DNA of 64,000 nucleotides from Octopus vulgaris (taxonomy: Eukaryota). Each line of letters begins with the position of its first letter. Within the stretch, counting starts at the first letter, position 1. The notes beneath the pieces were generated by a model, which saw nothing but the letters and a program-made list of their open reading frames with translations, did not search any database and was not told the DNA's origin. The position numbers were made by a program, and so were the translations under genes. The stretch covers positions 75,640,001-75,704,000 of the forward strand of contig OX597816.1 of the NCBI GenBank assembly GCA_951406725.2, read 5' to 3'. Of the stretch, positions 19,354 to 56,241 are shown piece by piece.

Positions 19354-19414
<61 letters not shown>

Positions 19415-19418
<4 letters not shown>

Positions 19419-20120
19419 GCAATTAAGGACAACTACTTAATAATTACTTAATATTTTTAAATGTCTTACTTTGAAAAATTGCATTCGGTTGGATTAGTAA
19501 TATTTTTGGTAGAAATGACTAATTGTCCCTCTTAGCGTTTGGCACGTATGTATAATGCCTTCTGGCATGTATATAATGCCCTCTATATATAAATTAATAT
19601 GTTCAATAAGAAATAATTATTTTCGAAATTTTTTCTCTTATGAGGTTCTTACGCTATCTACCTGACAATTTCTTGTTAAGTTTTCCTTATTAAGTAGTTG
19701 TCCTTAATTGCTAAATTTTTATTCCGAAAAAACTTTTCCTCTCCCGAAATGCAATTCGTAAAAGTTTGCCATTTGACAGGATGTAATATATGTAAACTCA
19801 CCCATGTGCTTCGTTGAATGTTGAACAGTTAGCTGATCAACTTAAGCGGGGCAGGGTCGTTGTTTATTTATAATGCATTCAGGCCTGCTGATGAGTACGT
19901 AAGTATGAAATCACTGTGATACAGGTCTATATATTTTTAAATGTCTTACTTTGAAAAATTGCATTCGGTTGGATTAGTAATATTTTTGGTAGAAATGACT
20001 AATTGTCCCTCTTAGCGTTTGGCACGTATGTATAATGCCTTCTGGCATGTATATAATGCCCTCTATATATAAATTAATATGTTCAATAAGAAATAATTAT
20101 TTTCGAAATTTTTTCTCTTA
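19415..20120 (+). mobile_element. Non-coding retrozyme-like / mini-PLE element (480-bp period) in (TA)n
   Basis: Identical 190-bp direct repeats 19451-19640 and 19931-20120; HHR 19882-19928; 29-bp 5' inverted piece 19415-19443 is the reverse complement of 19687-19715. Confidence 0.85.
19882..19928 (+). ncRNA. Type I hammerhead ribozyme motif (canonical core)
   Basis: GGCCTG - CTGATGA - GTAC GTAA GTAT - GAAA - TCAC T GTGA - TA - CAGGTC; predicted cleavage 3' of 19921. Confidence 0.85.
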
Positions 20121-20123
20121 CAC

Positions 20124-20159
<36 letters not shown>

Positions 20160-26769: not shown

Positions 26770-27200
26770 AAGGAGAAAGCTGAGATTTGTAAAACTATGG
26801 GCCTCAATATCCCACGCATGAAATCCCTACGTATGAAATCCAAGTTTCATTGTGGCCTTTACAGGACGATGGGCTCATAATTTCTTGAAACATGAACAAG
26901 CATCACTTTGATAATTTCAGAAAATACCTAACCAAAATTTCCGAAGAGTTAAATCTAAAAATCACAGTTGACACTAATCTAAATATTGTCAACTTTCTAG
27001 TCATCTCTTTACATTTAGACATCACCAGTTTGTATTTATTTAGAAAAGCCAAATAGGAAACTATTGTATATCAACATAGAATACCACCATCTCACTTTCT
27101 AACACCGAGAACTTAAAACAATTACTTTAATGCGCTTGTCGTGAACGACGAAGCTTGAGTCAATTCCGCAAATATTTATTACAATGATGAGCTAATAGTG
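26770..27200 (+). pseudogene. Penelope-like (Naiad-type) reverse transcriptase fragment, decayed
   Basis: GLY(R)DDGL catalytic motif (1-nt deletion) at ~26853, then FDNFRKYLTKISEELNLKITVDTNLNIVNFL..L.L....FRKAN. Confidence 0.75.
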
Positions 27201-47892: not shown

Positions 47893-47902
47893 CATGTATG
47901 TA

Positions 47903-48076
47903 TGTTACTCAGAGTTTCATGTGACCGTTCATCAGATAGTTGCGATGATACTAAATAAAAAATTGCGTGGGTACATATAATATGATATAATATAATATAA
48001 TGTCATATATACTCGCAGTTTTTTATTCAGCATCATCGTTACTGTCTGACGAACGGTCATATGAAACTGTAACAGT
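47903..48076. ncRNA. Palindromic element carrying two outward-facing hammerhead motifs
   Basis: ~70-bp imperfect inverted arms; plus arm ACTGT-CTGACGA-ACGGTCATAT-GAAA-CTG-TA-ACAGT (48041-48076); minus arm CTGATGA-ACGGTCACAT-GAAA-CTCTGAG-TA-ACA (47903-47940). Confidence 0.7.
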
Positions 48077-48615
48077 TTATATATATATACACACACACGC
48101 ACGCACACACACACAAACACATACGGAGGTGTAATTGTCAGGTAAGTAATTTGATCTGAGACCGTGTGTTGAAACTAAAACGATTGCAGCATGGAAGACA
48201 CAGTAGATATATTAACCAATGAGCCATTCAAAAACACAGAAGGACTGTTCCTTTCTGTTAAACAGTCATTATTTGTTATGTGGTGTCAAAATATTCGTCT
48301 TTTGAACTGCGACCTGGTCAACGTTGTCAGTAACAGGTCAACGAAAATTTTGACACCATCCCCAAAATAGTAAGTTGAAATGAAGTTAAAAGTCTTGAGT
48401 GTTTCTGAATGTCTAGCATGTGTCTTCAACACTGTGATGTGTGTGAGTGTGTGTGCGTGCGTGCGTATGCGTGTGTGTGTATGCGTGTGTGTGTGTATGT
48501 ATGTATATATGTATGTATGTATGCATACATGTATGTATGTATGTATGTATGTATGTATGTATGTATGTATGTATGTATGTATGTATGTATGTATGTTTGT
48601 ATGTATGTATGTATG

Positions 48616-54998: not shown

Positions 54999-56241
54999 CA
55001 GGGGTTGGACAAAACAATGGAAACACCTCAAAATTTCAAACAAATTTATTTTAATACGGGGTAGGACCGCCTTTGGCAGTAATTACAGCTTGAATTCTAT
55101 GAGGTATGGACTCCTACAAAGTTTGAATTGTTTCCAAAGGAATTTTTGTCCATTCTTCAGCTAAAACCGTCTCCAGTTCTTGTAGTGATGATGGAGGATA
55201 TCGACTCCTTACTTGTTTTTCTAAAATGTACCACAAATGTTCAATAATATTGAGATCTTGGCACTGTGGTGCCAGATAAGATGTTCAACTTCACTAGAAT
55301 GTTCCTCGTGCCATTCAGTAACAACTTTAGCTGTGTGAATTGGTGCATTATCATCCTGAAAGATTGCGTTTCCCTCTGGAAACAGTTACGCAACCATAGG
55401 ATGAATTTGATCATATAAAATGCTTAAATAGTCTTGACTATTAATTCTGCCATGAAGGGAAACCATTGGGCCGGCGGATTTCCAAGATATAGCCCCCTAG
55501 ATTACAGATCCTCCTCCATGTTTAACAGTTGGAAGAAGGCAGTCTAGGTCAAATGCTTCTTTTGGCTGTCTCCACACGTATACTCGGCCGGTGGTCGGAA
55601 ATAAGATAAAGGATGACTCGTTCGAGAAAATAACCAATTCTGTAGGTTTTTACTCCTCTAAACGCTTTGCGACGTTTGTTTTTGAAAGTAGTGGTTTTCT
55701 GATTGCAAACCCTCCCGTGAAATCCGGATTTGTGCAGCTCCCGGTGAACAGTTTTTGTGCGAACTAGATTCCCGAGGTGGTCATTAAGCTCTGCAGTAAT
55801 TTTGGGAGCTGTACTTTTGTGATCCTTTCTAACAATTCGCGTAAGAGTCCGAAGGTCCCTATTTGAAAGTTTTGTTTTCTTCGGGAGTTTCGTTTCGACG
55901 AGGAAGTTTTTCCCTCTTTCTCAAAGGCTATCATTACTTTCGAGACAGTACTTCTCGATACACCAAACGTTTCGGCTGTTTTTGTTATGCTTGCACCTGC
56001 CATACGAGCACCAACAATTTGGTCTTTTTGAAAGTCCGATAGATCTGTCATTTTAATGAATTTTAATTACCTTTTTCTAATGATATCTGAAAAGAAACAG
56101 CAATTTTAGCAAAACACATTAAGCAACACTAATAATACATAAAAAAAAAACAAAAATAAACAAGCTTTTGACGGTTTTATAGATATTTCAAAATTATAAT
56201 GCTATAATGCTAGGTGTTTCCATTATTTTGCCCAACCCCTG
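54999..56241 (-). mobile_element. Full-length Tc1-family DNA transposon (1243 bp), TA TSD
   Basis: 30-bp TIRs CAGGGGTTGGACAAAACAATGGAAACACCT / AGGTGTTTCCATTATTTTGCCCAACCCCTG; TA on both flanks. Confidence 0.95.
55051..56051 (-). pseudogene. Tc1 DD34E transposase pseudogene
   Basis: MTDLSDFQKDQIVGAR..GVSRSTVSKV (HTH), RKPLLS, VIFSNES, TVKHGGGSV, IFQDDNAPIH, DLNIIEHLW, KGGPTPY*; multiple stops and frameshifts. Confidence 0.93.

Follow-up and report, generated by a model that had tools for sequence, protein, structure and literature searches.

The window analysed here is a stretch of 64,000 nucleotides from the Octopus vulgaris genome (contig OX597816.1, positions 75,640,001 to 75,704,000) and contains, between simple repeats, a short insertion made of 1.4 copies of a 480-bp unit with a hammerhead motif (Table 1). 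The sequence-only reading of this DNA had described the repeated portions as identical, and they form an exact direct repeat of 190 bp (19451-19640 and 19931-20120) with a period of 480. It had also described a 5' inversion of 29 bp; the inversion is present and measures 30 bp, 19414-19443 being the reverse complement of 19687-19716. One arm of the copy (the B arm) is 30 nt long and the other 670 nt, the latter starting off-site at unit position 190. As for the (TA)n flanks that had been claimed, a long (TA)n tract lies on the left side and a different simple sequence on the right.

Table 1. Features of the insertion and its flanks (window coordinates).
Feature	Position	Strand	Remarks
(TA)29.5 microsatellite	19357..19415	.	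left flank, likely target
Inverted arm, 30 bp, unit 237-266	19414..19443	-	3' end = fixed end B of the family
Junction filler, 7 nt, between the two arms	19444..19450	.	resembles inverted-arm end
One full 480-bp unit	19451..19930	+	non-coding
Site A, unit ~134-146	19584..19596	+	fixed 3' end zone; putative RT start site; read through here
Site B, unit ~263-266	19713..19716	+	second fixed 3' end zone; putative RT start; ~120 nt downstream of A
Type I hammerhead motif	19882..19927	+	predicted cut after 19921 (unit 471); stem III palindromic
Partial second unit, unit 1-190	19931..20120	+	identical to 19451-19640; end non-canonical, 44 nt past A
Site A, second occurrence	20064-20076	+	read through in window copy
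Right flank CAC(AT)5 then (TG)13	20121..20158	.	sequence

Six-frame translation of the unit (GC 32.7%) gives no coding frame, in agreement with the earlier statement that an RT/EN ORF is absent; the RT plus GIY-YIG open reading frame of an autonomous PLE is lacking. A circle of one monomer is predicted to fold at -122 kcal/mol (z -5.7 against 40 shuffles). Among the 39 open reading frames of the window a single one has a Pfam match, to a Tc3-type transposase (a fragment at 55552-55920, minus strand), and no host gene context for the insertion was found in these frames by Pfam. Elsewhere in the window, 26862-27071 (plus strand) weakly matches a second PLE-like RT fragment. Amid simple repeats at 47895-48085 lies a different small PLE-like element, with two degenerate motifs of minimal hammerhead type in inverted orientation, CTGATGA on the minus strand near 47935 and CTGACGA on the plus strand at 48046.

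The hammerhead proposed from the sequence, with an AUA site and a cut after 19921, could be traced with its core and all three stems. Stem I pairs GGCCTG (19882-19887) with CAGGTC (19922-19927), the core consists of CTGATGA (19888-19894) and of GAAA after stem II, stem II (GTAC-GTAA-GTAT) opens with a G.U pair where G-C is usual, and stem III (ATCAC-T-GTGAT) is a palindrome with a 1-nt centre. An Rfam search of the window at E<=1 returned 47 matches, nearly all on microsatellites, and did not list the hammerhead family. Stem I reads GACTTG...CAAGTC in subfamily copies and GTTGCA...TGTAAC in a sister family (see below), stem II carries matching changes, double changes affect 5/14 consensus pairs (four sequences compared) and the arms of stem III are invariant across the sequences compared. 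The predicted hammerhead is supported by this covariation in stems I and II across subfamilies. According to folding predictions stem III alone does not form a hairpin, its self-duplex has an energy of -10.1 kcal/mol, and the MFE fold of the monomer lacks stem III (pair probability about 0.02), which counts against the explanation favoured below. In the available text of PMC7229834, amphibian hammerheads with a weak palindromic stem III are described to cut well only as dimers, and Li et al. report, in the available part of their preprint, cleavage in just one of nine predicted retrozyme dimers (bioRxiv 10.64898/2026.07.22.740005). These authors call retrozymes 'active' when at least two consecutive units occur, an arrangement present at many other loci and not in the window copy. 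The latter cannot yield a circle or a doubly cut monomer because it has only one hammerhead. A long-range stem is also predicted between window positions 19746-19782 and 19476-19488 (CCGAAATGCA pairs with TGCATTCGG) in both the 480-nt and the sister families; it divides the domain of sites A and B from that of the hammerhead.

The genome contains 337 exact matches to the 38-mer hammerhead pattern and 568 to the 29-mer that follows the cut (reversed controls, 0 in both cases). In the genome-wide BLAST of the 480-mer that had been proposed as a check, the unit is multicopy and its matches are dispersed tandem arrays (210 matches; 39 of 1007 candidates scored), and the best family copies are 94-100% identical. 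The claim of a young insertion is supported. A single-copy locus and an assembly duplication are excluded by the hundreds of dispersed copies. Eighty loci were mapped: the 39 best full-length matches, selected for matches starting at the first base of the window copy, plus 21 places with the hammerhead pattern and 20 with the post-cut pattern, each taken from the first 100 matches to its pattern. The longest array is an arm of 15,071 nt with 31.3 near-identical units, which ends at B opposite an inverted A arm within a 15.6-kb insert (C1:64639650-64655250; L159, L160) that has (TA)n on both flanks. The sister family has a 495-nt unit about 70% alike with a long stem II (2150 first-look candidates; copies at L098:7030-7350, minus strand, and L109-L138). 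One short frame of the 480-bp unit recalls the Neptune linker in its CxxxxCxxC pattern; it was discarded, as the sister family has not kept it. With a type I hammerhead in each unit, dispersed dimers to multimers, no coding capacity and a GC content below 45%, the 480-bp repeat qualifies by its sequence as a metazoan non-LTR retrozyme, a class of element that is already known.

The 3' ends of the family lie in zone A (unit ~134-150) or zone B (~263-272), about 120 nt apart, and (TA)n is joined to nearly all A and B ends. Both outer ends could be classed in 48 of the 80 loci by a motif caller that was tuned on the same 80 loci and is blind to pairing: all 48 are A+B, with no A+A and no B+B. The remaining loci comprise 29 with one end classed, two with both ends on one strand and one with none. 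Read by eye, 51/59 two-armed inserts are A+B and eight, including the window copy, have one odd end. The window copy goes against the pairing rule, its left arm ending at B and its right arm at 190; this odd end and that of L013 (at 84) both close with CTCTTA, which is like site A, in these two cases only. A search for a PLE sharing the 190-bp end had been suggested; it would be misdirected, because this end is no terminus of the family and the real termini lie at ~134-150 and ~263-272. The homologous two ends are in use in the sister family (12/30 loci read).

This A/B pattern is the 'tail' pattern of Penelope elements. PLE inserts show, in the available text of PMC8557442, an inverted 5'-truncated copy, a tail of 30-40 bp at one end and a bias towards (TA)n. 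The accessible portion of PMC11167929 shows that the genomic tail of the PAc element is delimited by two RT start sites, both internal; the same portion states that the PLE nicks AT-rich DNA on both strands in vitro, that the protein is a predicted dimer, and that hammerhead cleavage is dispensable in vitro, uncut RNA being the main RT substrate. The octopus insertions share the inverted, 5'-truncated copy and the tail on a single side, and their targets are microsatellites or AT-rich DNA. Against this likeness, the retrozyme tail of ~120 nt exceeds both the 30-40 nt of PLEs and the ~28-40 nt of the local Neptune-type elements.

At the other end of the arms, the window copy starts at 19451, 9 nt downstream of the position that corresponds to the cut, and its 5' end had been taken to mark the cleavage site. 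The position is right for this copy and is not a feature of the family. Mapping of the breakpoints relative to the hammerhead across the 80 loci, another of the checks suggested earlier, revealed no enrichment at the cut: among 134 5' breakpoints read by hand (the window copy and two tangled loci, L093 and L147, left out), 8 lie in the 22-nt window around it (unit 469-10; 6.1 expected, P=0.27) and one lies within 3 nt. Richer 22-nt windows exist (up to 12/99 5' ends), arms longer than one unit predominate (60/98 arms, counted in 57 of the first 60 loci) and 239 cut junctions are intact inside the 80 loci. The idea of a 5' end at the cut was accordingly rejected. A template consisting of a linear monomer cut by the hammerhead, from which the RT runs off at the 5' end or jumps to the monomer 3' end, would place arm ends at the cut, as in the window copy, and 6/65 ends of the first locus set do fall in the cut window against 3.0 expected (a figure obtained by subtraction). 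Such a mild excess is what selecting full-length matches from the first base of the window copy would give, and the two pattern-chosen sets have 2/69; together with the pooled counts and the intact junctions, these figures make a cut linear template improbable.

Haplotypes carry information on the template. Divergence, in substitutions per site, is 0.0032 inside an arm (230 pairs), 0.0036 when the opposite arms of an insertion are compared (190 pairs) and 0.0124 across insertions (32,361 pairs), with L093 and the pairs inside the 31-unit array left out. At sites covered by at least three units per insertion (35 insertions), 77 variants occur in all units, 95 in one and 8 in some. Eighteen variants, as scored, are private to one insertion each, where every covering unit carries them. 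Because variants are fixed per insertion, lineages pass through one unit and then re-multimerise. One haplotype is common to the units and both arms of an insertion, which is expected if a single monomer is copied by a rolling circle. One-haplotype arrays could also come from homogeneous mother arrays or from later expansion, and period-2 recurrences of single-unit variants at L082 and within the 31-unit array, which speak against this expectation, suggest some later duplication there.

The same data bear on a second kind of template, an uncut linear multimer transcript used by a PLE that primes twice, at A and B, with arrays inherited or grown by unequal exchange and circles, if any, as a by-product. 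The dominance of uncut RNA as substrate of the PAc element (in the available part of PMC11167929), the weak stem III of the monomer, the 8 mixed sites and the period-2 recurrences agree with it. It is nevertheless unlikely, since the 18 fixed variants need a bottleneck of one unit followed by re-multimerisation, the haplotype is common to both inverted arms, and truncated copying alone would be expected to shorten arrays in every generation.

Signals in public sequencing runs are compatible with the existence of multimeric or circular RNA. In run X4, which is only guessed to be RNA, a contig of 512 nt returns to its start (a loop of 482 nt plus an overlap of 30 nt) with a depth of ~1098, other listed X4 pieces having <=24. 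The loop carries 7 substitutions and a TG insert that are those of the units of array L091, the only locus among 60 that matches the seven diagnostic states tested. A plentiful circle or a tandem transcript of a single array would account for it, and the contig is also compatible with tandem DNA. Runs X1, X12 and X13 contain only low-depth pieces of the unit. In run X12, record 10 on window 19466-19606 has seven A>G changes in 146 nt, and no genomic piece of 266 carries more than one of them; the changes look like A-to-I editing of inverted arms, in one contig with a depth under 5 and another organism label. A viroid-like RNA that replicates from RNA to RNA and integrates occasionally could account for the highly self-paired circle (the z value given above) and for the dominance of one haplotype in X4. 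The X4 haplotype, however, is that of genomic array L091, and no minus-strand ribozyme motif occurs within the 480-bp unit; an origin of this kind is the least probable of all those considered. The term 'replicon' used in the sequence-only reading is unnecessary, the sole abundant loop seen being that of a genomic array.

Coding elements that might supply the enzyme occur in the same genome. There are at least three young Neptune-type families (L061-L068, L201-L209 and L106), with RT, CxxC linker and GIY-YIG and with intact RT/EN frames of 775-781 aa (781-aa and 775-aa frames), family C being partial; the Neptune-type label was assigned by the linker described in the available text of PMC8557442. 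Families A and B have an upstream ORF. The 3' region of these elements contains hammerhead variants, with a TTGATAA core in family A and CCGAAGA in family C. Family A has two end sites, separated by 40 nt and joined to (TA)n, and its inverted copy L066 uses one of each; in family C, the two ends seen in L106 are spaced by about 28 nt. The search for a partner used PF01541 and one protein query, and 150 of 6136 GIY-YIG candidates were scored. BLAST found no sequence common to the unit and a coding PLE in Neptune-type families A, B and C and several single copies, and unit-like matches near some loci (L038/L104, L098 and L105; 69-85%) proved to be separate insertions of related repeats instead of joined 3' ends. 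A PLE as the partner enzyme of the 480-nt retrozyme is an inference, because no Neptune-type locus compared shares sequence with the unit.

Alternatively, a coding PLE might have left the copies as its 5'-truncated ends, or pseudo-LTRs, or the repeat might be an assembly duplication; the latter is excluded as stated above. The inverted arms, the tail and the (TA)n targeting are PLE features (PMC8557442, available text), and a model in the available part of bioRxiv 10.64898/2026.07.22.740005 would allow the unit to descend from a PLE by ORF loss. Only 170 non-coding nt lie, however, between B and the next hammerhead, and PLE-like coding matches were found in 6/80 loci, five of them at least 348 bp away. 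The sixth (L145), considered as a coding body joined to the unit, is really a 776-bp fold-back of the flank. None of the 80 loci is joined to a PLE frame, which speaks against the suggestion that the copies are simple 5'-truncated ends of a coding PLE and leaves this origin very improbable. The flanks of L145 (3193-3968) and L014 contain inverted duplications of flanking DNA (a 776-bp palindrome and about 36 bp, respectively), as if one primed arm had copied the target and not the RNA.

Overall, the insertion is best read as that of a non-autonomous hammerhead retrozyme, likely mobilised by a Neptune-type RT/GIY-YIG endonuclease that copied a probably circular monomer RNA (probability roughly 0.65). 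The sequence-only reading had considered it a cDNA of a hammerhead-processed multimeric or circular RNA moved by a PLE into (TA)n; the (TA)n target and the PLE-like anatomy stand, and the argument from a 5' end at the cut does not. A template that is multimeric or circular is most likely. In the scheme favoured here, transcripts of an array with at least two hammerheads would be cleaved into 480-nt monomers, probably by double hammerheads that form through the palindromic stem III, after which a host ligase would close the circle. A PLE protein dimer would nick both strands of (TA)n and prime internally at A and B, one site per strand. The outcome is visible in the anatomy: the two arms lie tail to tail, with one 3' end at A and the other at B, and their scattered 5' breakpoints are connected through microhomology or short fillers. 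An arm may go on around the circle and cross the religated cut site, producing head-to-tail arrays of one haplotype with up to 31 units. That the insertions are the footprints of such rolling-circle target-primed reverse transcription, with a PLE dimer, one RNA circle, A/B priming and >15 kb of cDNA per event, is a proposition to which we give even odds.

The family resembles known systems in different respects (comparisons are with the available parts of the papers cited). Metazoan non-LTR retrozymes likewise consist of tandem units of low GC content that lack coding sequence and each carry a canonical type I hammerhead (PMC7229834); they occur as dimers to large multimers, and coexisting PLEs are proposed as their mobilising partner. 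Those of amphibians share the weak palindromic stem III (PMC7229834). The unit of 480 nt compares with 170-400 nt for those tested in 2020 (PMC7229834) and lies within the 51-972 bp of bioRxiv 10.64898/2026.07.22.740005. In the available text of both sources PLE mobilisation is proposed from co-occurrence and pLTR homology and insertion ends are undescribed, whereas the evidence from the 480-nt family is anatomical, with two fixed, strictly paired ends and no pLTR homology to the Neptune-type loci compared. Neptune-clade PLEs and the Poseidon element PAc also have an inverted 5'-truncated copy with a tail at one end (PMC11167929; PMC8557442), two internal RT starts downstream of the hammerhead and AT-rich or (TA)n targets. 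They differ in possessing an RT/EN frame, in lacking head-to-tail arrays of up to 31 units, in their shorter tail (30-40 nt vs ~120) and in having a minimal and not a full hammerhead. For PAc in vitro the start site is equal for both strands (PMC11167929), whereas the classed genomic inserts of the octopus are A+B throughout. Chlamys MRC1-type elements are, like the 480-nt family, non-coding PLE parasites with multicopy head-to-tail insertions, but they have 3' sequence in common with autonomous partners and their clade lacks canonical hammerheads (PMC8557442).

No paper on an octopus or cephalopod retrozyme was found, though paper supplements or the 2014 PLE-hammerhead paper may list the family, and none on paired retrozyme insertion ends was found by title or abstract start. 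What appears to be new is that A+B pairing is strict and that arrays have a single haplotype; together these features connect a retrozyme with PLE twin priming, probably on a circular template.

The question addressed is how animal retrozymes return into DNA, their partnership with PLEs having been proposed so far from co-occurrence and pseudo-LTR likeness. A young family records the re-insertion step in its ends, with two fixed starts used once each per insertion, and intact Neptune-type frames occur in the same genome together with an array that is a candidate for expression. The published in vitro system allows a direct test of rolling-circle copying by a PLE; such copying, if true, would give the proposed life cycle of retrozymes the form of a defined reaction in which the template, the start sites and candidate enzymes are named, and would explain the appearance of ready-made minisatellite arrays at dispersed sites.
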